Below are positions 2,281-30,465 of a DNA stretch of 32,000 nt, in pieces. Source of the DNA: Synechococcus elongatus PCC 6301 (GTDB lineage: Bacteria; Cyanobacteriota; Cyanobacteriia; Synechococcales; Synechococcaceae). A model generated the notes under the pieces. It was given only the letters and a program-made list of their open reading frames with translations. It did not search any database and was not told the DNA's origin. Within the stretch, counting starts at the first letter, position 1. Each line of letters opens with the position of its first letter. Location of the stretch: positions 840,001 through 872,000 of the forward strand of contig NC_006576.1 of assembly GCF_000010065.1 (NCBI RefSeq), read 5' to 3'. A program made the translations under genes and the position numbers.

Positions 2281-2312
2281 GGTGAAGCATGACCTGGTCC
2301 ACGCTTTAATTC

Positions 2313-4109
2313 ATGCTTGCTCTGTTACGTCGTTGGGATGATTGGTCACTACTGAGTCGGCTTTTGCCTTACCTCGGTCGCCACAAGCGGTTACTGATCG
2401 GATCGTTGATTTTGCTCGTGCCCTTGGCTTTGGCCGGCGCCGTGCAACCCATGCTGGTGGGGCAAGCGATCTCGGTTCTACAGAACAAGCCGACCTGGGA
2501 AATGCTGCAGGGCATGAGCCGCAGTCAAGGCTTGAACCTACTCTCCTTGGCACTGTTGGCCACGATCGTTGTGCGGCTGGCCTTCCGAGGCGTCCAAGGC
2601 TACTACGTGCAGGAAGTCGGTCAGCGCGTGACCGCCGACATTCGCCAAGATTTGTTCCAGCACGTCACGGCTCTGGCCGTGCGCTTTTTCGATCGCACGC
2701 CTGTGGGCAAGCTGGTGACACGACTCACCAACGATGTCGAAGCCCTCGGCGAAGTCTTTTCGACCGGCGCGATCGGTATTCTCAGCGATATTGTTTCATT
2801 GCTGGCGATCGCGATCGCCATGTTTTGGTTGCAGTGGCAATTGGCGCTGTTGCTGACCGTTTTATTGCCGCCCACCACGGCTGTCATCCTCTATTTCCAG
2901 CGACGCTACCGCAAAGCCAATTACCGAGCCCGCGAGGAGCTGTCGAACCTCAACGCCAGCTTGCAGGAAAACATGGTCGGGATTGGCATTGTCCAAAGCT
3001 TCCGCCGCGAAGCCTACAATGCCCAGCAGTTTCGAGTGGCGAATCAACGCTATCTCGAAGCCGTCGATCGCACGATCTTTCACGACTCGGCCATTTCCGC
3101 CACGCTGGAATGGATCTCGCTGGCTGCGATCGCGGCTGTCCTCTGGTTAGGCAGCTTTCTGGTATTGCAAGACCAAATGAATTTTGGTCTGTTAGCAGCA
3201 TTTATTCTTTACTCGCAGCGGTTGTTTGACCCGTTGCGCCAACTCGCTGAAAAATTCACCTCGATTCAAGCTGGATTTACAGCGATCGAGCGAATTGTCG
3301 ACATCTTCAATGAACCAATTGAAATTCGCGATGCCGCCCAGACCCAACAACTGAGCCTTGAAACCTCACAGTCTGGAGAAATTCACTTTGAAAATGTTTG
3401 GTTTGGCTACAAGCCCGATGAGCCGGTCATTCAAAACCTCAACATCACCATTCAACCCGGTCAAAAGGTTGCACTAGTGGGGCCGACTGGAGCCGGAAAG
3501 AGTACGATTATTCGCCTGCTCTGTCGCCTCTATGAGCCAACTCAAGGACGGATTTTAATTGACGGCATTGATATCCGAAATCTACCTCAGGTCGAGCTGC
3601 GGCGTCACCTAGGCGTCATTCTCCAAGACGGCTTTCTGTTTGCCGGGGATGTCAGCAGCAACATCACGCTGGGAGAGCCCTACGACCAGGAGGCGGTGCA
3701 GGCAGCAGCGCGTCGCACCAATGTTGCCACGCTGATTGAATCGCTGCCGCAAGGCTATGCCACTCCTTTACGGGAACGCGGGACAAATTTGTCGGGCGGA
3801 CAAAGGCAGCTATTGGCGTTTGCGCGGGTGGCCATTCGCGATCCAAAGGTGTTGATTTTGGATGAGGCGACAGCGAATTTAGATGTCGGCACTGAAGCTC
3901 TTGTTCAAGAGGCTTTAGATGATCTCCTGAGCGATCGCACCGCAATTATTATTGCTCACCGGCTCTCGACAATTCGCAATGCCGATCGCATCTTAGTCCT
4001 CCGCCAAGGACAGCTAATCGAAGATGGATCACATGATGTTTTGATGGCTCGCAACGGACTATATACCAGTCTCTATCGACTGCAATCACTGGGAGCAGAA
4101 GTAGCCTAG
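2313..4109 (+). CDS. ABC exporter, fused permease/ATPase (MsbA/multidrug type)
   Basis: N-terminal 6-TM region, Walker A GPTGAGKST, signature LSGGQRQ, Walker B ILILDEAT. Confidence 0.88.
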   Translation: MLALLRRWDDWSLLSRLLPYLGRHKRLLIGSLILLVPLALAGAVQPMLVGQAISVLQNKPTWEMLQGMSRSQGLNLLSLALLATIVVRLAFRGVQGYYVQEVGQRVTADIRQDLFQHVTALAVRFFDRTPVGKLVTRLTNDVEALGEVFSTGAIGILSDIVSLLAIAIAMFWLQWQLALLLTVLLPPTTAVILYFQRRYRKANYRAREELSNLNASLQENMVGIGIVQSFRREAYNAQQFRVANQRYLEAVDRTIFHDSAISATLEWISLAAIAAVLWLGSFLVLQDQMNFGLLAAFILYSQRLFDPLRQLAEKFTSIQAGFTAIERIVDIFNEPIEIRDAAQTQQLSLETSQSGEIHFENVWFGYKPDEPVIQNLNITIQPGQKVALVGPTGAGKSTIIRLLCRLYEPTQGRILIDGIDIRNLPQVELRRHLGVILQDGFLFAGDVSSNITLGEPYDQEAVQAAARRTNVATLIESLPQGYATPLRERGTNLSGGQRQLLAFARVAIRDPKVLILDEATANLDVGTEALVQEALDDLLSDRTAIIIAHRLSTIRNADRILVLRQGQLIEDGSHDVLMARNGLYTSLYRLQSLGAEVA

Positions 4110-4348
4110 CGACCGCGCCACCGACGGTTACTCACCCTAGAGCCAGACTCTCGCGTCTCTAGACCCGAACACTGGCAGGTTTAGCAACAACAAGTGCTAG
4201 TCAATCCTGAAGCGTTAAAAGCGTTTCCTAAGTGCTTCAGCCATCTTTGTCGTTTTCTTACAAATCCTGAGCCTTTTCAACAAACCGTTGTTTTTACTGC
4301 GATCTAGGTGCCTCCTAAAGATAGGACGTGCGATCGCGAGGCTCAGCT

Positions 4349-6909
<2,561 letters not shown>

Positions 6910-23272: not shown

Positions 23273-23512
23273 ATGAAAGTGCGTTGCTACCTAAGAGAAC
23301 TGATGGAAGAGCGAGGGCTTGATCAGAAGTCCTTGGCGATCGCAGCTGGCTTAGGCGTAACGACCGTGAGCCGCCTTTACAAGAACCGGTTTGACCGCGT
23401 GGACGTGACGACACTGACAAAGCTGTGCAAGTTCTTCCAGCTCAAGTCAGTTAACGAACTTTTAGATATCGAAGTAGAAGATGAAGATCCGAGGTCTCAA
23501 GACCCTTGGTAG
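23273..23512 (+). CDS. XRE/Cro-type helix-turn-helix regulator (paralog 2)
   Basis: MKVRCYLRELMEERGLDQKSLAIAAGLGVTTVSRL...LCKFFQLKSVNELLDIE. The first 14 nt of the CDS are identical to paralog 1. Confidence 0.8.
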   Translation: MKVRCYLRELMEERGLDQKSLAIAAGLGVTTVSRLYKNRFDRVDVTTLTKLCKFFQLKSVNELLDIEVEDEDPRSQDPW

Positions 23513-23557
23513 AGTTTTTATTGACGCCAATAAAAAGCCTCTGACCTTTTTGGCGAC

Positions 23558-23605
23558 CCCGCCGAAAAACCCTCCCAGCCTGCGTTTTCCGTTTCTATTT
23601 CTGTT
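23558..23605 (+). repeat. R2: conserved ~40-bp inter-cassette element
   Basis: cccGCCGAAAAAcCCTCCCAGCCTGCGTTTTCCGTTTCTATTTCtg. Confidence 0.8.
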
Positions 23606-23618
23606 AGTAAATACCCTT

Positions 23619-23879
23619 ATGAAAAATTACGCTGTGCCAAACATTGCGGCGCTTAGGAAGCGCACTGGGCTGAGCCAAACGCAGCTGGCTAACATCGTTG
23701 GCGTTGACCCTGTGACAATCCGCAACTGGGAAAGAGGGCGATCGGGCCTTGACTGGTTTGTGAAGCTCGCCAAGTTGTGCGAAGCACTTGACTGCTCTCC
23801 TCGTGACTTAGTCAAGGATCCGGACAGTGAATCAAAAAAGGTGCCACGGACAGTTAATGAGCTTTTTGCAAGCTTCTAA
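23619..23879 (+). CDS. XRE-type helix-turn-helix regulator (divergent third copy)
   Basis: LRKRTGLSQTQLANIVGVDPVTIRNWERG...LAKLCEALDCSPRDL. The internal ATG at 23619 is preferred, because the upstream part of the track ORF reads through R2. Confidence 0.78.
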   Translation: MKNYAVPNIAALRKRTGLSQTQLANIVGVDPVTIRNWERGRSGLDWFVKLAKLCEALDCSPRDLVKDPDSESKKVPRTVNELFASF

Positions 23880-23896
23880 AACTTTTTACGGGACGT

Positions 23897-23940
23897 GCCT
23901 GAAAAGCTCTCCCAGCCTACGTTTTCCGTTTCACTTCTCA
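23897..23940 (+). repeat. R3: conserved ~40-bp inter-cassette element
   Basis: gcctGAAAAGctCTCCCAGCCTaCGTTTTCCGTTTCacttctc, about 18 nt after the HTH3 stop. Confidence 0.8.
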
Positions 23941-23950
23941 TCACAAAAGC

Positions 23951-23984
23951 AAAGCCCCAAGTGTAGACCGAGGGGCTTTTTTGT
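23951..23984 (+). terminator. Rho-independent terminator
   Basis: AAAGCCCC - 13-nt loop - GGGGCTTT, followed by TTTTG. The composition switches to AT-rich immediately after it. Confidence 0.7.
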
Positions 23985-24306
23985 TAGATGAGGTGCTTTC
24001 AAATCGCTTTCTAGTGTTTTTATGACTACTAAAGCACTACATATAGTGTCTATTGTGTGATGTAATTCGCCTTGCTAACGAAAAGTGGAAAGCTTCGATA
24101 GTATGAAGTCGGAGCTTGTTAAGTCTCGCTTGGGGCGAAGGTATGCCGTATCTACCTGGAACAGGTCAAAACATAGAACGAATGGACGCCTGTTGAGTTA
24201 TCAAATTCGTGCGCTGAAATCAGTATAAGTCAAGAAAAATAGAACTTCTATAACAAGCTAATCCTATGTTAGGTCTGCGGGAGTAGGACGTCTGAGGGAA
24301 TTTCAC

Positions 24307-24858
24307 ATGGCTCTGGAATCAAGGGACAAATTAAAATCATTGGTTCACTACATTTGTAGTAAACGATCAGGTTCTCCGAGCCTGGGCTCAACCAAGCTGA
24401 ATAAGATTCTTTGGTTTCTCGATAGTATTGTTTACCGACAAACAGGAAAACCAATTACAGGTGCAAAATACAAAAAACTTCAACATGGTCCAGTACCAGT
24501 AGATATTCTTGCGATCCAAAAGGAATTGGAATCAGAAGGTAAGATATCTGTTAGTTATGACAGGTCTTACGGATTTGGATTCCGCACAACAATATATACT
24601 TCTTTGCAAGAGCCCGACAAAAGCTTGCTTGAAGAAGACGAACTCAAATTTGTAGATATTGTCATTTCACGGATCTGCGACGGCCACACAGCCAGATCCA
24701 TCAGCGAGCATTCGCATGACGTTATCTGGGAGGCTGCCGCCATGGGTGAGGAGATACCTCTTGAGGCAGTTTTAGCGTCAGAGGAAGCTCCACTAGAGCC
24801 TGAAGATATAGATTGGGCTCGTGGCGTCATCCGAAAACGGAAAGAAGGAATTGCTTAA
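24307..24858 (+). CDS. Panacea/SocA-like (DUF4065) antitoxin-domain protein
   Basis: GSTKLNKILWFLDSIVYRQTGKPITGAKYKKLQHGPVP matches the DUF4065 core pattern (KLxKLLYf.D ... G.P.tg..y....GPv). Confidence 0.72.
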   Translation: MALESRDKLKSLVHYICSKRSGSPSLGSTKLNKILWFLDSIVYRQTGKPITGAKYKKLQHGPVPVDILAIQKELESEGKISVSYDRSYGFGFRTTIYTSLQEPDKSLLEEDELKFVDIVISRICDGHTARSISEHSHDVIWEAAAMGEEIPLEAVLASEEAPLEPEDIDWARGVIRKRKEGIA

Positions 24859-25172
24859 TGCAAGGCGGGTCATGGTTTGCCAAGTCAATCATAGAGTCCG
24901 AAGAAACGATAAGAGTAAAGGATTATGCGTCTAGTGAATTTTGGCGCTTTGATTCAGCCTGGAACGGTATTACTTGGCGACTTGCAAGACAAGCTCATTT
25001 GATGGGGACGGAGATTGGCGGATACAGGGTATATAAATTCCCTGGAATTGACGCAGGCGGTGAATCTGTCCCATCCATGGTCTTGGTCTTTGAAGTCCGG
25101 GAGGATGAAGTAGAGATAATTGATTTGCGGATAGGCCCCCCTGTCGCTGACACCTACGAGCTGGATTGGTAG
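24858..25172 (+). CDS. Small unassigned protein translationally coupled to the DUF4065 gene (candidate toxin partner)
   Basis: Its ATG overlaps the upstream stop (TAATG at 24856-24860). 104 aa. The C-terminal YRVYKF...MVLVFEVREDEVEIIDLRI is only loosely reminiscent of RelE/ParE-fold strands. Confidence 0.55.
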   Translation: MQGGSWFAKSIIESEETIRVKDYASSEFWRFDSAWNGITWRLARQAHLMGTEIGGYRVYKFPGIDAGGESVPSMVLVFEVREDEVEIIDLRIGPPVADTYELDW

Positions 25173-25231
25173 TAGCAATCTACTGATAATTCAAGAGATC
25201 ACCTAGCCTTTTGATAGTTTAGGATAACCCA

Positions 25232-25272
25232 GCCGAAAAGCCTGCCCCATCATCGTTTTCCATTTCTATTCA
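25232..25272 (+). repeat. R4: diverged copy of the inter-cassette element
   Basis: GCCGAAAAgcCtgCCCcatcatCGTTTTCCaTTTCTATTc shares GCCGAAAA, CGTTTTCC and TTTCTATT with R2. Confidence 0.65.
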
Positions 25273-25360
25273 GGCTGCCAATTCACTTGTTAGAAGTTAA
25301 ATGTTGTGCTTCTGACAAACCTCAATACGTGGTTTACACACACAATTTTAGGTTCTGATC

Positions 25361-26089
25361 ATGCTGACAGATAATCATGAGGCTTTTTTCTCACCATCTA
25401 ATAACCAAACAATTTGGCGCTATATGGACTTCACAAAGTTCATTAGTTTACTTGAAACCCAAAAGCTTTTCTTTGCTAGGTTAGACCAGTTTGAGGATCC
25501 CTACGAAGGCACTTGGTCAAATGCAGGCATTCAAGTTCTTCGAAACCAAGTACAAATTGGTGCTTTCTCAAATAATGCTGCTGAACAATTAATCAATTTT
25601 CAGGATATTCAGAGGAAAATAATGTTTATCAGTTGTTGGCATGCCAATGAGTTTGAATCAGCAGCAATGTGGAAACTCTATCTAAATAGCAATGAAGGTG
25701 TTGCTATTAAAACTGATTACAATACACTCGCAATCAGCCTAGAAAGTGCACCACTAAAAGCGGGGATATCAATGGTGAGATATATTGATTATGACAATGA
25801 AGTAATTCCATTCAATAACATTTTTTATCCCATTACTCACAAAAGACGTAGTTTTGCCCATGAAAAAGAGCTTAGGGCAATTATGTGGACGCCAGAAGCC
25901 ATTCAAGATCCAGACAAGATACTAAATTCAGTTACTGTTGATATCTTGCCGTCTCAACTTATACAGTCTGTATATGTATCACCAACCGCACCTAGGTGGT
26001 TTGGTGAGTTAGTCGACAATGTGGCTCGCCGTTATAGTCTAGAAGTTCCTGTTATTCACTCAGATCTCTATAACCGACCTGTTTTCTAA
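25361..26089 (+). CDS. DUF2971 family protein
   Basis: IWRYMDFTKFISLLETQKLFFARLDQFEDPYEG matches the N-terminal DUF2971 pattern (l.rY......l..l....l.fs....f.DP.E). Confidence 0.6.
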   Translation: MLTDNHEAFFSPSNNQTIWRYMDFTKFISLLETQKLFFARLDQFEDPYEGTWSNAGIQVLRNQVQIGAFSNNAAEQLINFQDIQRKIMFISCWHANEFESAAMWKLYLNSNEGVAIKTDYNTLAISLESAPLKAGISMVRYIDYDNEVIPFNNIFYPITHKRRSFAHEKELRAIMWTPEAIQDPDKILNSVTVDILPSQLIQSVYVSPTAPRWFGELVDNVARRYSLEVPVIHSDLYNRPVF

Positions 26090-26314
26090 ACTGCTAAGTC
26101 TTTCAACCTATCAGAAGAGATATTAATTTTGTTCTTTTTGAAGATACTCTTCCCGACTAGGTAATAATGACATTGGGAGTTGAACTTCTTACTAGTTGCT
26201 GTAATTACTAGATATCTTAGCTACTTAACTAAAAAGTTTTAGTAACGATAGAATTCTAAGGTTTTACTTGTAATTTTGCATAAAATAAAGTTTGGATCTT
26301 CCAGAACAAAAAAC

Positions 26315-26907
26315 TTACCAAACACTAGATGCTGTTCTGACAGACAGATATTTCTGATTAAGTATTTCGTAAAAATTACCTCTTTTATTAATAATTTTAT
26401 CTAGTTCTTTAGCATCAAAGGTTATCACAACTATTTTATCCTTAACCTAGGCATTACGAATGATTTGTTTTGCATCTTTCGTGATGCCATTTGTAGCAAA
26501 AAAAATTCCAATATTAGCGTCAACATCCCGCATTTTGGAGCAGAAAGTTCTTAACTCACATGCACCTACTGTTTTTTGCCAATTTTTACATTCAACGATT
26601 AGTAAATAAGAAAATTCAAAGAAAAGAGTAGCTTCAATTCGTTTTACGGTAAAGTCTAAATCTATTTCTCCTGTTTCACACCTCCTTCTTTTACTATTAA
26701 GCTTTAGAATAAGGAGATTCTAGAAAATTATGAGCTAGCTCCTCAAGAACTAAACCAAGGTCATCATCTTCTCTTGGTTTATTTACTCTTGACAGTAAAT
26801 CAGTAAGCAAATCTCTAGACTTATTAATTTTCTCATCTAATACTATCTCAGGGGTACAGCTTCAACTTATCAAAGAGAGTTAAATCTTGGTGTGAGTTAT
26901 CTCCCAC
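26315..26907 (-). pseudogene. Mrr-type (Mrr_cat / PD-(D/E)xK) restriction endonuclease-like gene with multiple frameshifts and an in-frame TAG
   Basis: AGGAGG plus a GTG at 26907 opens a 19-codon frame. After a frame change comes ...DLLTDLLSRVNKPREDDDLGLVLEELAHNFLE. After another frame change comes GEIDLDFTVKR...LLIVECKNWQKTVGACELRTFCSKMRDVDANIGIFFATNGITKDAKQ (D..ExK core). Then a TAG at 26447-49, then VKDKIVVITFDAKELDKII. Confidence 0.7.
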
Positions 26908-26916
26908 TCTAGCCTC

Positions 26917-27654
26917 CTAAATCCGAGTTAAGACAATCTGATTATCTTGCAATTCTCGTGATTTAGAATCTTGATCTAACTCAAAAGTTTCATTAAATGA
27001 GTAGGTTAAAAATATATTTTTCTCGGAAACTTCAAACTCGTGAGAACAATGACTGCATTTATTCTCTTCATTCAAAGGTATATCTCTATAACTAGAGTAA
27101 ACTTCTATGGTTTCCTGACAATTTGGGCAGACAAGTTCAAATTGTTCTGTGAGGTACCCTAATCTCACTAACCTTGAAATAGTCTCTATCCATTTTCCTT
27201 CATCTAAGCTAAAGCCAAGTGTTTGATAGATTCGTGGGTTAAATCTTTTTCCATATCCATGGCTGCGAATAGCATGAATAAGTGATTGAATAACATTTTC
27301 ATCTGACGTGGTTACATCTGACTTTAAGCCTAATTTTTTCAATGATGGTAAAAACTTTATTTTGTGCACAATTGAAAAGACATACTCAATAAGCTCTTCA
27401 GGAACATCACTCATAAACCATATATTCCCTTGGCTACTAATATGCAAAGAAGACTCGATTATTTTTCTCGAATAAGAAGTATAGAGAAACTCTAGACGGG
27501 TTTCTCTTAAGTCCCCTTGAGCAAAATAATTTGTATATTCTTCAGATGCATCTAAGTCATCTAAATCAGGAGAGGCAGAGACATAGATTGTATCAATATC
27601 TCCACCAAATCTCTTATATTTTGTAGCTTTTGATTTCCCATTGAGTTCGTTGTT
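26917..27654 (-). CDS. Unassigned protein with a C-terminal zinc ribbon. The frame is open upstream of the TTG start and overlaps the end of the preceding ORF, so it is possibly the 3' half of a split gene.
   Basis: The track ORF 26917..27447 starts at TTG. The same frame stays open to 27654 and encodes a plausible peptide (KRFGGDIDTIYVSASPDLDD...). Zinc ribbon: CPNCQ-x18-CSHCSH. Confidence 0.5.
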   Translation of the reverse strand, partial: NNELNGKSKATKYKRFGGDIDTIYVSASPDLDDLDASEEYTNYFAQGDLRETRLEFLYTSYSRKIIESSLHISSQGNIWFMSDVPEELIEYVFSIVHKIKFLPSLKKLGLKSDVTTSDENVIQSLIHAIRSHGYGKRFNPRIYQTLGFSLDEGKWIETISRLVRLGYLTEQFELVCPNCQETIEVYSSYRDIPLNEENKCSHCSHEFEVSEKNIFLTYSFNETFELDQDSKSRELQDNQIVLTRI

Positions 27655-28297
27655 TTAAAAGCAAAATATCTTGATTAGTAAAAGTCATAGGTTCTATTTC
27701 TATGCCGAGCAACAATGACATCGAGTTGTACAGCATTTCACTTTCGCGAATACTAGCTCTTGTCTCGACAACAAAAGTTGTATCTAGAAGCCTAATGTAA
27801 GAATTTAAGCGCTTAGTAGGAATAACTATGCGTCTTTCATAATTATCTTCGATTTCATATTTTTTCCCAGCACAAACAAATTCAAGACGCAATAAATTTC
27901 CACTGATCCATTCAGCACTGTTAAAGGCAGGCTTTTGAGTAAGTTGAGGCCTTATTTCGTTCTTGAATGGATCAGCTGAGTTTCTATCTTGAATGATCTT
28001 GCTGAGCTCATTTCTAGATAGTATTCTCCTCTCTAGGGGTATACCCCAGCAAACTGAAACTCTACCTGCAAATTTATAAGATTGAATCAGTTTAATAATG
28101 CTATTGATGTCAATAGCATTTTGGTCAAGAAGTATTTGTACTTCATTGATAAGAGCATCTTTTGTAGTATGTTTTGGCAGATCTTGCCCACCATCGGCAT
28201 CACCCAATAATTCTTGAAGGGCTTTAACAGGAACATACTTATCTAGCTCCTGAAGAAGGGGAAAGAATCCTAAGTTATTGGAAGACTGCTCTTTCAT
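27614..28297 (-). CDS. Unassigned protein (227 aa), possibly the 5' half of a frameshift-split gene
   Basis: ATG-initiated ORF in AT-rich cargo. No motif I can assign. Its last 41 nt overlap the open upstream extension of the next ORF in the +1 frame. Confidence 0.55.
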   Translation of the reverse strand: MKEQSSNNLGFFPLLQELDKYVPVKALQELLGDADGGQDLPKHTTKDALINEVQILLDQNAIDINSIIKLIQSYKFAGRVSVCWGIPLERRILSRNELSKIIQDRNSADPFKNEIRPQLTQKPAFNSAEWISGNLLRLEFVCAGKKYEIEDNYERRIVIPTKRLNSYIRLLDTTFVVETRASIRESEMLYNSMSLLLGIEIEPMTFTNQDILLLKQRTQWEIKSYKI

Positions 28298-28489
28298 GCC
28301 GAGGCAATTAATTCAAAAGGTAATATCATTAATCCTGTTGGCCTTATTTTAGCCTAAACATACCCAAAGTGAGCTGCTCAGAATTAAAGTAAAGTAATAC
28401 TTATAGATTTATTGAGATTTAAGACAACTTAGGCAAAATAAGTAATAGTCAGTAGTCTAGAAGAATAAAAAATTATCTCAAGAACAATC

Positions 28490-28912
28490 TTACTTGAGAT
28501 GCTTAACTGAAGCACTAGTCAACTCTTGTAACTTAGATGCCACTTCCACTCTATGACATCTTGAGAAATCCATCTCTGCACAGAGCAATAAAATGTTTCC
28601 AGTCTCAAGCATCTCAGCAACTTCGCATAAGGTTTGCTTAGCTGCTTCAGGTTCAGGTGGAATCCAATGACTACTACCTGACAAATTACCTAGCGATGAC
28701 TTAGAAACATATTGAATATTTTCAGAGGTGCAAAGCTTTTGAAGAGCATCTCCGTACCACATTCTAGACCAGGCACGTGGCTTCAATCTTACATCGACTA
28801 CACAGGTGACACTAAATTCTCTAAGACAAGAAAGAAAAGCATCATAATTTTTTCGGTTTCCGTAACCGAAGGTCAGCACTGTCTTGCTTTCAGAAGTTGC
28901 TAAATCAGGCAT
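28490..28912 (-). CDS. DUF488 family protein
   Basis: LTFGYGNR, FSVTCVVDVRLKPR and ILLLCAEMDFSRCHR follow the DUF488 pattern (T.GHs.r..e.F...L......lvDVR..P ... LlC.E.....CHR). Confidence 0.75.
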   Translation of the reverse strand: MPDLATSESKTVLTFGYGNRKNYDAFLSCLREFSVTCVVDVRLKPRAWSRMWYGDALQKLCTSENIQYVSKSSLGNLSGSSHWIPPEPEAAKQTLCEVAEMLETGNILLLCAEMDFSRCHRVEVASKLQELTSASVKHLK

Positions 28913-28913
28913 T

Positions 28914-29729
28914 TTACAAGTCCAGTAAGCTCAGAGTTTGTACATCAGTTTCTCGGGAGTTTTTTGGAGGGTAAAATATTCCTATAATCATAAAAACTTT
29001 GCAATGCTGTTTGAGATTACCTACTATAAAATAAATATCTTTTTTAGACAAGAACTCATTTTCTAGCTTCTCTCTAACCTTGGATAAGGATTCTAATTCT
29101 CTTCCCTCTAGACTGGAAGCATTAGATTTATCTCGACACTTTCTATAAAGTTCGCAGATCTCCCAGTCGCTTATTGAGTACGAACGTTTTTTGTTATCTA
29201 CTTCAGTAAATTGGTAGCCAAACTGGTAAGGTATTTTCTCTAGATTCAACGAAGGCTCGAACAAATCACCCTGATCTTGAATAGCTCTTTGCTTTGGGCT
29301 CCACTCACGTTCAGTTTCTCTGCAAAAATATTTTTCTATACTTCTGGGCTTAATTATGCCTAAAGATTTTCCTTGTGCTTGTATTTCAGCGATAGATCTG
29401 AATTGCAAAGGTAATACAAAAGACTTACGCTCTTCCCAGTTATTTTTGGTTCCTATGTGCCTGACTACATCTATTGAAGTATCATTAATCCGATAACTTT
29501 CTTCTCGATAGTCTTTCTCATTTCTTTCGACTTCTGCACTAATAATCGACCATCTCTTATAACGCTTGTCGAAGTCTAGATTTCGAAATCTCACTGGATA
29601 AATTCGAATCCACTGGACGGGTTTTTCATTGGCATCCAGAAGAATTCCTGCAGTACAAACAGTTTCCTTATACTTGGTACTAATAGATGGATAGGTTTTA
29701 GTTGCAATTAGGATCTTTCGTCTTTCCAT
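28914..29729 (-). CDS. Unassigned 271-aa protein, first gene of a two-gene operon with DUF488
   Basis: Clean ATG ORF. Its stop TAA (28914-16) is separated by 1 nt from the DUF488 ATG (28912). I recognise no catalytic or family motif. Confidence 0.65.
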   Translation of the reverse strand: MERRKILIATKTYPSISTKYKETVCTAGILLDANEKPVQWIRIYPVRFRNLDFDKRYKRWSIISAEVERNEKDYREESYRINDTSIDVVRHIGTKNNWEERKSFVLPLQFRSIAEIQAQGKSLGIIKPRSIEKYFCRETEREWSPKQRAIQDQGDLFEPSLNLEKIPYQFGYQFTEVDNKKRSYSISDWEICELYRKCRDKSNASSLEGRELESLSKVREKLENEFLSKKDIYFIVGNLKQHCKVFMIIGIFYPPKNSRETDVQTLSLLDL

Positions 29730-29766
29730 CTACGTCATGAATCACATATTTTTAGCTAAGCCACCA

Positions 29767-29794
29767 TAATACTTTCTCTTGAGTCTTTGTTAAA
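29767..29794 (-). promoter_or_regulatory. Candidate sigma70-type promoter for the 271-aa/DUF488 operon
   Basis: Minus strand: TTAACA (29794-29789), a 16-nt spacer, then TATTAT (29772-29767), about 35-40 nt upstream of the ATG at 29729. Confidence 0.35.
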
Positions 29795-29946
29795 AAGCAA
29801 AATATGACCTTTTCATCTCAGATCAATGAATACATGAGAGTTAAACACTATCTGTAGTGGCCAAGTAGTTTTGATAGCCACTATCTTGTGTTTCTTATCG
29901 AGAGAATTAATCTCACTTCTCAGCTAACTGTTGCCTCGGCTCCTCT

Positions 29947-29972
29947 CAAAACACCCCCAGCCGCTGTCTGCA
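29947..29972 (+). repeat. R5: possible half-copy of the inter-cassette element at the right GC boundary
   Basis: caAAACacCCCCAGCCgctg shares AAAA-n-C..CCCAGCC with the left half of R1-R3. The right half is not conserved. Confidence 0.3.
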
Positions 29973-30000
29973 CCTATTGAGCGATCGCACCAATCAAGCC

Positions 30001-30465
30001 CTAGGCAAACGGGTCTTGATTACTGCCCATCATGCGGCTGAGACGTCGGGCACGCTCACCCACCTGGTCAGCCCAGAGGCTGTTCAGCATCTCATCAGCT
30101 GCCTCGGCGTAGCGTCCGGCCTCAATGTGGCCTAGGGTCTTACGGAAGCGAAGCAGGCCGTCGATACCCAGATTAATTGCCATGTCGATCAGCACTCGCT
30201 GACGCACCCACGAAAGCTGTCTAACCCAAGGCAGGCGCGACTCAAGCTGTCGCATTGCGTGGTCGATGTCGCTCACCAGCAGCAACCGCGCTTCAGCCTC
30301 ACTGATGCCGCGGTCGTCCAGATTGCGACCGATGCCAATCGTCAGCCTGCCCGCCGTGCAGCGGTACGGCTTCAGCCGCAAGCCCTCATGCAAGGTCAAC
30401 TGCCGAATCAGGTCGACACGCTCGCCGGTAAGTTGGTCTGCAATCGTGCGGATGCGGTCACTCAT
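30001..30465 (-). CDS. Phage lysozyme (glycoside hydrolase family 24, T4-lysozyme type)
   Basis: LTLHEGLRLKPYRCTAGRLTIGIGRNL (catalytic E, then the D/T region), typical of GH24 endolysins. Confidence 0.85.
   Translation of the reverse strand: MSDRIRTIADQLTGERVDLIRQLTLHEGLRLKPYRCTAGRLTIGIGRNLDDRGISEAEARLLLVSDIDHAMRQLESRLPWVRQLSWVRQRVLIDMAINLGIDGLLRFRKTLGHIEAGRYAEAADEMLNSLWADQVGERARRLSRMMGSNQDPFA

Follow-up and report, generated by a model that had tools for sequence, protein, structure and literature searches.

Two small minus-strand genes in a prophage of Synechococcus elongatus, separated by a single nucleotide, raise the question of whether they form a functional unit of their own and, if so, which role this unit might play. 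Both are located in the 32,000-nt stretch of S. elongatus PCC 6301 DNA (NC_006576.1, positions 840,001 to 872,000) that was analysed here and is referred to as the window. Gene A (0757) encodes a protein of 271 aa, gene B (0758) a DUF488 protein of 140 aa. The original prediction, made from the sequence alone, considered the pair the best candidate for an undescribed system. Our analysis demonstrated a genuine module of two genes that is widely conserved and belongs to a catalogued but uncharacterised candidate family: among 106 fetched loci with a gene A homolog, a DUF488 gene lies beside the homolog, i.e. within 600 nt, in 104. The features of the pair are the following:

28914..29729, minus strand: gene A (Synpcc7942_0757), predicted tandem OB-fold protein of 271 aa; intact open reading frame (ORF) with PADLOC and PHROG profile matches
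28490..28912, minus strand: gene B (Synpcc7942_0758), stand-alone DUF488 protein of 140 aa; intact ORF with a PF04343 match
28910..28916, minus strand: junction of the gene A stop and the gene B start, TAA-A-ATG, with a spacer of 1 nt, read in the sequence
29766..29793, minus strand: promoter-like TTAACA-16 nt-TATTAT 5' of gene A, a 10/12 sigma-70-type match
29023..29051, minus strand: weak internal promoter-like TTGTCT-17-TATAGT in the 3' part of gene A, upstream of gene B, a 9/12 match
28298..28489, minus strand: spacer of 192 nt between gene B and the next gene (0759), from the ORF coordinates

The 104 linked loci comprise 82 with the order A-B, 14 with the order B-A and eight in which the two genes are convergent; none is divergent. 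In cyanobacteria, a DUF488 ORF is located directly 3' of the gene A homolog and on the same strand in 80 out of 80 loci. The two loci without a DUF488 neighbour are a contig end and the plasmid pSOG2, in which an integrase gene resides at the place that is held by a ParB-HTH-DUF488 fusion gene in the sister plasmid pSOG1 (HTH, helix-turn-helix). Besides cyanobacteria, the pair spans Actinobacteria, Proteobacteria, Planctomycetota, Firmicutes-like prophages, Crenarchaeota and Euryarchaeota. Tight or overlapping junctions recur in homologous loci: convergent genes with overlapping 3' ends are found in Gordonia phages and on plasmids of Streptomyces, Rhizobium, Massilia and Arthrobacter, and B-A pairs with overlapping stop and start codons in Planctomycetota, other uncultured lineages and two Firmicutes-like prophages. 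Homologs of the 271-aa protein are, hence, found next to DUF488 almost throughout instead of mostly occurring without it. As none of the other island genes of the window, including homologs of 0759, recurs near the pair in other loci, the module consists of exactly two genes, and the earlier view of a self-contained unit is borne out.

The partner of gene A occurs as DUF488 alone, as HTH_59-DUF488, XRE-DUF488 or ParB-HTH-DUF488, and as DUF488 with an unidentified N-terminal extension; judged by their domain matches, all identifiable extensions are predicted to be DNA-binding. Outside the cyanobacteria the usual form is an HTH-bearing gene B (HTH_59, XRE or ParB-HTH) directly upstream of, and overlapping, gene A. 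On archaeal plasmids of Saccharolobus, Sulfolobus and Haloquadratum, the gene A homolog adjoins a ParB_N-HTH_ParB-DUF488 fusion, and all three full-length ParB-HTH-DUF488 genes in the plasmid collection adjoin a gene A homolog. These fusions share the DUF488 domain with gene B of the window, which differs in having neither ParB nor HTH. A protein of this archaeal ParB-CTPase-HTH-DUF488 class has been reported to bind CTP; the report addressed neither the adjoining OB-fold gene nor the function of DUF488.

On conjugative plasmids of the Sulfolobales (L094, 2945-5361; L082, 3998-5358; NC_010597.1, 23257-25113) a three-gene module is found, made up of ParB-HTH-DUF488, the gene A homolog and a conserved ORF of 163-168 aa with 60% identity between plasmids. 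By eye, an E-I-D...E-x-K arrangement in this third ORF resembles PD-(D/E)xK nucleases; a Pfam search returned no match to it. This small ORF has also been kept alongside the gene A homolog of pSOG2, where the integrase replaces the fusion gene.

The gene A protein had originally been left without a family. It does belong to one: residues 1-259 align with positions 1-265 of the 269 positions of the PADLOC profile PDC-M19B (PDLC04508; 1.1e-72, 242.7 bits), phrog_25907 is matched at 1.3e-52, and the protein carries the label arCOG04954. Pfam, NCBIfam and PDB sequences gave no match. The family is large and uniform, with 1,798 clusters at 50% identity and E<=1e-3 (917 of them at E<=1e-10), nearly all members of which have 255-290 aa; at least 436 loci in GTDB representatives carry the gene. 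C25, R49 and W189 are invariant, and some 20 further positions are nearly so. The closest homolog is Synpcc7942_0757 of S. elongatus PCC 7942. The window is the reverse complement of the PCC 7942 chromosome near 751 kb and is 99.87% identical to CP000100.1 across 7.1 kb, none of the nine differences being located in gene A or gene B. The original GenBank product of Synpcc7942_0757 is an N-terminally truncated form of 226 aa that begins at an internal methionine and loses 45 residues, including the most conserved ones of the family (K11, Y13, P14, S17, E22, C25, G28, R42 and P45). Two observations back the start that yields 271 aa: the homologs share a conserved N-terminus, and the re-annotation places the gene at 751142-751957.

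With both partners recognised, the pair turned out not to be undescribed, since PADLOC-DB v2 already models it as the unvalidated phage-defence candidate PDC-M19. Gene A corresponds to M19B from end to end, gene B matches M19A in part, and the genes are adjacent. The pair of the window differs in its A-B order and in that the M19A profiles are longer (234 and 294 positions), evidently with an N-terminal HTH as in the Streptomyces and prophage versions. Gene B scores 1.2e-12 with PDLC04505, the best stretch covering only positions 243-292 of 294, and 1.5e-05 with PDLC04504; it matches the DUF488 core of M19A and lacks a counterpart to the N-terminal portion of the profile. PADLOC PDCs have been described as mostly unvalidated, PDC-M19 being a computational candidate, and we found no publication in the literature that mentions it. 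What our study adds is a fold assignment for gene A, a linkage that extends over both prokaryotic domains in shuffled gene orders, the fusions of gene B to DNA-binding domains and the tie to existing genetic data.

An AlphaFold (AF2) model of the gene A protein was obtained with a mean per-residue confidence (pLDDT) of 84 and a predicted template-modelling (TM) score of 0.82. When this model was compared with the PDB and with a viral structure library using Foldseek, the only significant matches in both were multi-OB-fold nucleic-acid binders, namely P. abyssi RPA, Teb1, CST, TEBP, the HIN-200 proteins p202/p204 and baculovirus LEF-3. A confident match to a phage structural or metabolic protein, which would have refuted the original prediction, did not appear. 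E-values ranged from 1e-4 to 5e-3 and probabilities from 0.9 to 1.0 at TM-scores of only 0.2-0.3; because these TM-scores are low, the assignment is one of domain type and not of homology to any one protein. The gene A product is thus predicted, at the level of the fold only, to be a tandem OB-fold nucleic-acid binder. Its similarity to the group of RPA, Teb1/POT1/TEBP/CST, LEF-3 and HIN-200 concerns the domain type, not the overall architecture, and sequence similarity to them is not detectable. In 56 of 135 family representatives a C-x4-C-x(1-2)-H knuckle precedes an invariant D-W-E motif. Its residues suggest a zinc knuckle, reminiscent of the zinc ribbon in DBD-C of RPA70. In the cyanobacterial clade the knuckle has been lost (0 of 118 close homologs) and the invariant C25 kept; most family members from other lineages have a cysteine at the position of E176, a histidine at that of R182 and an additional inserted cysteine.

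Gene B was correctly recognised as DUF488 from the outset: it scores 61.1 bits (2e-16) against a cut-off of 22.2 with PF04343, over profile positions 3-119 of 121, and its motifs are intact. The protein carries the label COG5483. Among its homologs T14, G16-R20, D40, R42, C111-A-E113 and C119-H-R121 are invariant, corresponding to the motifs T-x-G-Y-G-N-R, D-V-R, C-A-E and C-H-R. With the DUF488-N3a subclade (PF22751) gene B reaches 18.4 bits, below the gathering threshold of 27; partners of gene A homologs in other lineages pass it at 29.5, 32.4 and 34.1 bits. The name DUF488-N3a may stem from comparative-genomics work on the rhodanese-phosphatase superfamily. The AF2 model (pLDDT 86) has a Rossmann-like alpha/beta fold, and a fold comparison found no solved structure that matches it at E<=1e-3. 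The nearest folds, at probabilities of 0.95-1.0 and TM-scores of 0.45-0.65, are the N-domain of tetrapyrrole methylases and the cysteine-dependent protein tyrosine phosphatases (PTPs); the best PTP match has E = 1.1e-2, probability 0.95 and TM 0.45, and the non-PTP Rossmann-like structure 3hh1 scores slightly better. Cys111 closes a beta-strand and is followed by a loop and by a helix that starts from Arg121, a topology like that of the P-loop of PTP phosphatases such as PFA-DSP1, SsoPTP and PRL-1. The P-loop signature C-x5-R(S/T) is absent, gene B having C111-A-E-M-D-F-S-R-C-H-R121, i.e. C-x9-R with an internal C-H, and profile searches show no sequence relationship to these enzymes. As the topology is PTP-like and the signature is missing, a phosphoesterase-like chemistry of gene B can only be inferred from the model. 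In the literature a biochemical function has been published for neither protein, in line with the earlier statement on DUF488; the accompanying statement that the family is part of no named defence system needs amendment, since DUF488 is a component of the PADLOC candidates PDC-M19A and PDC-M45B/C.

The ORF coordinates and the TAA-A-ATG junction confirm the two minus-strand genes with their 1-nt spacing, and the gap of 192 nt before the next gene was measured as predicted. No terminator-like site was predicted on the minus strand of this spacer (28298-28489). Regarding a promoter of their own, the proposed TTAACA-16-TATTAT is the top sigma-70-like match within 28100-30100; since the seven sites found in the region are not in excess of the 4.6 +/- 2.5 expected from shuffled sequence, it is a plausible and not a demonstrated promoter. 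One might speculate that the weaker internal site would allow expression of gene B regardless of insertions in gene A.

The genomic contexts point to mobility. The pair occupies cargo or lysogeny positions in at least four unrelated temperate phages, twice beside other toxin-antitoxin (TA) genes: in the S. elongatus prophage and in prophage L093 it follows the lysis genes, with a Panacea pair nearby in the former and HicAB adjacent in the latter; in prophage L091 it is situated between repressor/ImmA genes and the integrase; and in Nymphadora-type Gordonia phages the gene A homolog overlaps the immunity repressor gene at the stop codon of the latter. It also resides on conjugative plasmids, at times wedged among metal-resistance genes. 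A set of 2.9 million viral contigs yielded few copies, and housekeeping genes flank the pair at three of the four distant chromosomal loci. The neighbourhoods vary greatly (93 loci have 59 non-redundant flank sets), and this scattered, cassette-like distribution resembles that of TA genes. The classic defence-island context that had been proposed is not general. According to Pfam the flanks mostly contain housekeeping or metabolic families, and about 10 of 150 flanking ORFs from some 42 non-redundant cyanobacterial loci match PADLOC at E<=1e-10, a number that has no genome-wide background to be read against, so that a modest enrichment is possible, and that includes generic matches (DndA-like, kinase).

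Three of these contexts deserve mention in their own right. In the Gordonia phage Eviarto (L081, 4027-6274), the start of gp43, the gene A homolog, coincides with the final base of gp44, the immunity repressor gene, so that gp43 is probably expressed in lysogens; gp42, which encodes DUF488, is convergent with gp43 and overlaps it by 10 nt. The same arrangement is found in Nymphadora, BatStarr, TimTam and Herod. Published defence studies employed the Gordonia phages that carry the pair solely as challenge phages. In Nostocales (L009, L010, L016, L024 and L036; about 2300-5830) the pair is found at a fixed position, divergent from metH, the gene of the B12-dependent methionine synthase, which suggests vertical inheritance, unlike the mobile contexts elsewhere. 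On Haloquadratum walsbyi PL100 (L095, 1946-6164), the neighbours of the gene A homolog and ParB-HTH-DUF488 are two genes of DNA methyltransferases and one of a PadR-type winged-helix protein; few other contexts have such a resemblance to restriction-modification or defence.

How might such a pair function? With a probability of roughly 0.4 we favour the reading that it is a mobile, DNA-centred, TA-like module in which DUF488 restrains the OB protein. The gene A product, a predicted nucleic-acid binder with two OB-folds like RPA/LEF-3, would serve as effector or sensor and be harmful when unrestrained. Gene B, a small Rossmann-like DUF488 protein with a conserved Cys-Ala-Glu...Cys-His-Arg loop and several conserved arginines, would be its indispensable neutraliser or regulator, acting by binding or by an enzymatic step, and in other lineages would be tethered to DNA through the HTH or ParB-HTH fusions. 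A phage or plasmid that upsets the A:B balance might then provoke abortive infection or exclusion; an anti-phage role is so far only a database prediction (PDC-M19). In favour of a TA-like module are the obligate linkage with shuffled gene order, the scattered occurrence as a two-gene cassette, the independent nomination by PADLOC, and the HTH-bearing gene B upstream of A, which by analogy resembles an antitoxin-toxin architecture. As in type II TA systems, the two genes are small, adjoin and often overlap each other and are scattered over chromosomes, plasmids and prophages, one partner often bears an HTH, and one is apparently indispensable and the other dispensable. They differ from type II systems in that profile searches place neither gene in a known toxin or antitoxin family, in the unusual convergent arrangement (eight loci), in the fitness cost that losing the presumed toxin has under plasmid selection, and in that gene B of the window has no DNA-binding domain, such domains being supplied by HTH_59, XRE and ParB-HTH fusions in other lineages. 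DarTG is a precedent for a DNA-directed toxin with an enzymatic antidote. The more far-reaching proposal of a new TA or abortive-infection class, extending from Sulfolobales and haloarchaea to cyanobacteria and actinophages, in which a DNA-tethered, cysteine-dependent DUF488 enzyme would be the antidote of an RPA-like double-OB effector or sensor, appears rather unlikely to us.

Published genetic data from S. elongatus PCC 7942 are consistent with TA behaviour, although they do not prove it. In the gene table of a randomly barcoded transposon sequencing (RB-TnSeq) study, 0757 is labelled 'Non-essential' and 0758 'Essential', a label that within the 49-kb prophage is shared only by 0723, 0759 and the Panacea antitoxin 0762 (Taton et al.). 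0758 is present only in this table and has no fitness value (Taton et al.), which implies that there were no usable insertion mutants. In another study the whole section containing the pair was deleted, and the tables of strains and plasmids include single-gene deletions of 0757, 0759, 0760, 0761 and 0762 as well as a Tn5 insertion in 0756, and contain no strain and no vector for 0758 (Adomako et al., mBio 2022, PMC9239245), which makes 0758 the only island gene without a reported single deletion. In that work, 0759 alone failed to complement its own deletion while 0759-0760 did, and 0760 alone could not be cloned (PMC9239245). We infer that replacements of 0759 and 0762 were viable through polarity on a downstream toxic gene, which fits the requirement of 0759 for 0760 and the failure to clone 0760. 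No polar rescue of this kind would be possible for 0758, as it is located downstream of 0757. The labels, soft as this evidence is, fit a gene B that is needed only because gene A is present.

Several observations weigh against a TA-like module. The 'Essential' label is soft: 0759 and 0762 share it and yet were replaced by a kanamycin resistance (Km) cassette, the AT-richness of the island may bias Tn5 insertion, and the missing 0758 deletion may only mean that nobody tried. Gene A has no recognisable catalytic or toxic domain, and gene B of the window lacks the HTH typical of autoregulating antitoxins. To our knowledge, OB-fold toxins are no established class. Plasmid pSOG2 retains an intact gene A homolog without a detectable DUF488 neighbour. 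Broken copies with stops or frameshifts (L014, L026, L040, L045, L052 and L078-L080, mostly metagenome-assembled) have gene A broken and gene B intact in about six loci, the reverse in one and both broken in one; this direction of decay fits a toxin being lost first, without being significant given the gene lengths and with assembly errors possible. The heaviest objection comes from a screen for maintenance of an RSF1010-based plasmid, in which 0757 mutants had a fitness of -3.69 (t = -5.6), the second lowest genome-wide, with a large standard error of 0.66; the prophage repressor 0764 had -3.26 and the other prophage genes, all negative, about -1.2 (Taton et al.). A plain toxin should not behave in this way. 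In the other, conjugation data set, 0757 had +0.65, which is not significant, and the RSF1010 result was remarked on and left there (Taton et al.). No simple model accounts for both signals, the 0758 gene that apparently resists disruption and the cost of losing 0757 under RSF1010.

The second signal, with an effect size like that of the 0764 repressor, would be better accommodated if the pair served mobile elements as a non-toxic accessory module in the maintenance or regulation of DNA, without killing or phage block, a view that we regard as a tentative one with a limited chance of being correct. RSF1010 (IncQ) replicates by strand displacement, producing single-stranded DNA. The OB protein would coat or protect single-stranded intermediates, a DNA-tethered DUF488 would regulate or process DNA, and together they would stabilise lysogeny or plasmid carriage or buffer DNA stress. 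The match of the gene A fold to proteins of the single-stranded DNA-binding (SSB) type, the overlap of the Gordonia homolog with the repressor stop, the L091 pair between repressor/ImmA and integrase, the archaeal fusion of gene B to a ParB-CTPase-HTH of a class reported to bind CTP, and the many chromosomal copies with housekeeping flanks, including the stable metH position in Nostocales, are all in keeping with it. It leaves unexplained, however, why gene B alone should be indispensable in a dispensable prophage; moreover, canonical SSBs are already encoded by hosts and elements, a patchy, cassette-like spread between unrelated flanks would rather be expected of selfish or conflict modules, and the embedding-based nomination by PADLOC indicates a conflict role.

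It is also conceivable, if improbable, that the polarity is reversed, DUF488 being the harmful enzyme (e.g. a cysteine-dependent phosphoesterase-like activity on DNA or nucleotides) and the OB protein its inhibitor or a nucleic-acid-sensing switch. The enzyme-like invariant polar residues of gene B and its weak fold similarity to cysteine phosphatases would agree with this, as would the binder-like appearance of gene A, and an OB protein would be a natural sensor of phage or plasmid single-stranded DNA, as in sensor-effector defence; the pair is, after all, already a PADLOC defence candidate. Insertions in gene A that are partly polar on gene B could explain viability under standard conditions and severe unfitness under stress. 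A toxin gene should tolerate disruption, though, but gene B is 'Essential' and has no reported deletion, and HTH-bearing upstream genes normally are the antidote or regulator; single genes for stand-alone DUF488 proteins, e.g. YeaO of E. coli, are widespread, and the existence of a yeaO deletion strain argues against an intrinsic toxicity of the domain. Still less probable, in our estimate, is a conserved pair without any conflict or addiction, a housekeeping-type unit for, e.g., DNA or RNA repair or modification that at times hitch-hikes on mobile elements, the genetic signals then being artefacts of Tn5 bias, few insertion strains or prophage excision affecting barcodes. Mostly ordinary flanks, few copies in viral contigs, the deletability of two other 'Essential' island genes, the standard error of 0.66 and the negative values of every prophage gene under RSF1010 could be read in this way. 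0757 and 0764 are, however, clear outliers from the other prophage genes, and extremely variable neighbourhoods, plasmids and temperate phages of unrelated phyla, a patchy phyletic distribution and a gene order that is shuffled while adjacency is kept would hardly be expected of such a unit.

DUF488 is a large, widespread family without a known function, and its partner family, with at least 1,798 clusters, has no Pfam entry; the pairing of the two is near-obligate in both prokaryotic domains, in phages and on plasmids. Two strong unexplained signals are already contained in existing data, a DUF488 gene that seemingly cannot be disrupted and an OB gene whose loss is among the most harmful under RSF1010. 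The bare candidate PDC-M19 thereby becomes a testable system in the tractable S. elongatus PCC 7942. Since RSF1010 vectors are standard in cyanobacterial engineering, the effect of 0757 on RSF1010 tolerance is also of practical relevance. Should the pair prove to be a new TA class, a first biochemical role would be assigned to the very large DUF488 family, and the module would be linked to single-stranded DNA from invading replicons such as RSF1010 or phages. A demonstrated toxin-antidote relationship or an enzymatic activity of DUF488 would raise its importance sharply.

The pair is carried by a larger element, which provides its context and is not part of the module:

23344..29980, no strand: AT-rich, HIP1-free prophage cargo island, from GC content and HIP1 counts

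As had been predicted, this cargo is AT-rich and HIP1-free. The GC content is 33-43% over about 23.4-30.0 kb (some 6.6 kb) versus 55-60% in the flanks, and the HIP1 motif (GCGATCGC) occurs 62 times in the window versus about one expected occurrence and not at all between 23343 and 29981; all listed copies are reported on the plus strand because the motif is palindromic. The HIP1 gap at 23344-29980 sets the edges of the foreign island very sharply. The genes in the context of the pair include a Panacea-domain gene, an XRE HTH gene, DUF2971, a phage lysozyme, Peptidase_M15 and Bro-N.

The original prediction had also taken the intact state of the pair amid decayed neighbours as a sign of selection. 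These neighbours, 0759 and 0760, occupy 26318-28297 of the window and contain seven of the nine differences from PCC 7942, including single-base insertions at 26708 and 26851 in 0760 and at 27649 in 0759. In PCC 7942 both are intact (0759, 459 aa; 0760, 196 aa with Mrr_cat), co-transcribed and highly expressed, and they cause a prophage-dependent chlorosis (pigmentation) phenotype (Adomako et al., mBio 2022, PMC9239245). As they are intact and functional there, the argument from decay fails. The frameshifts reflect either strain-specific inactivation or sequencing errors like those published for the old PCC 6301 assembly.

The predicted Panacea-type pair and DUF2971 gene were both identified as neighbours by profile searches. 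The Panacea (SocA-like, DUF4065) gene at 24307-24858 (plus strand) overlaps an ORF of 119 aa at 24813-25172, for which no family match was found, in a TA-like pair. This gene, 0762, is 'Essential' in RB-TnSeq, yet a 0762::Km deletion strain is listed, as would fit if 0762 were an antitoxin and its replacement had a polar effect on the toxin gene that follows it. The DUF2971 gene 0761 at 25361-26089 (plus strand) matches the PADLOC single-gene candidate PDC-S31 (4.8e-25) and phrog_34615 (4.4e-61). In all, the island holds at least two PADLOC candidates, the Panacea pair and an Mrr-type nuclease.

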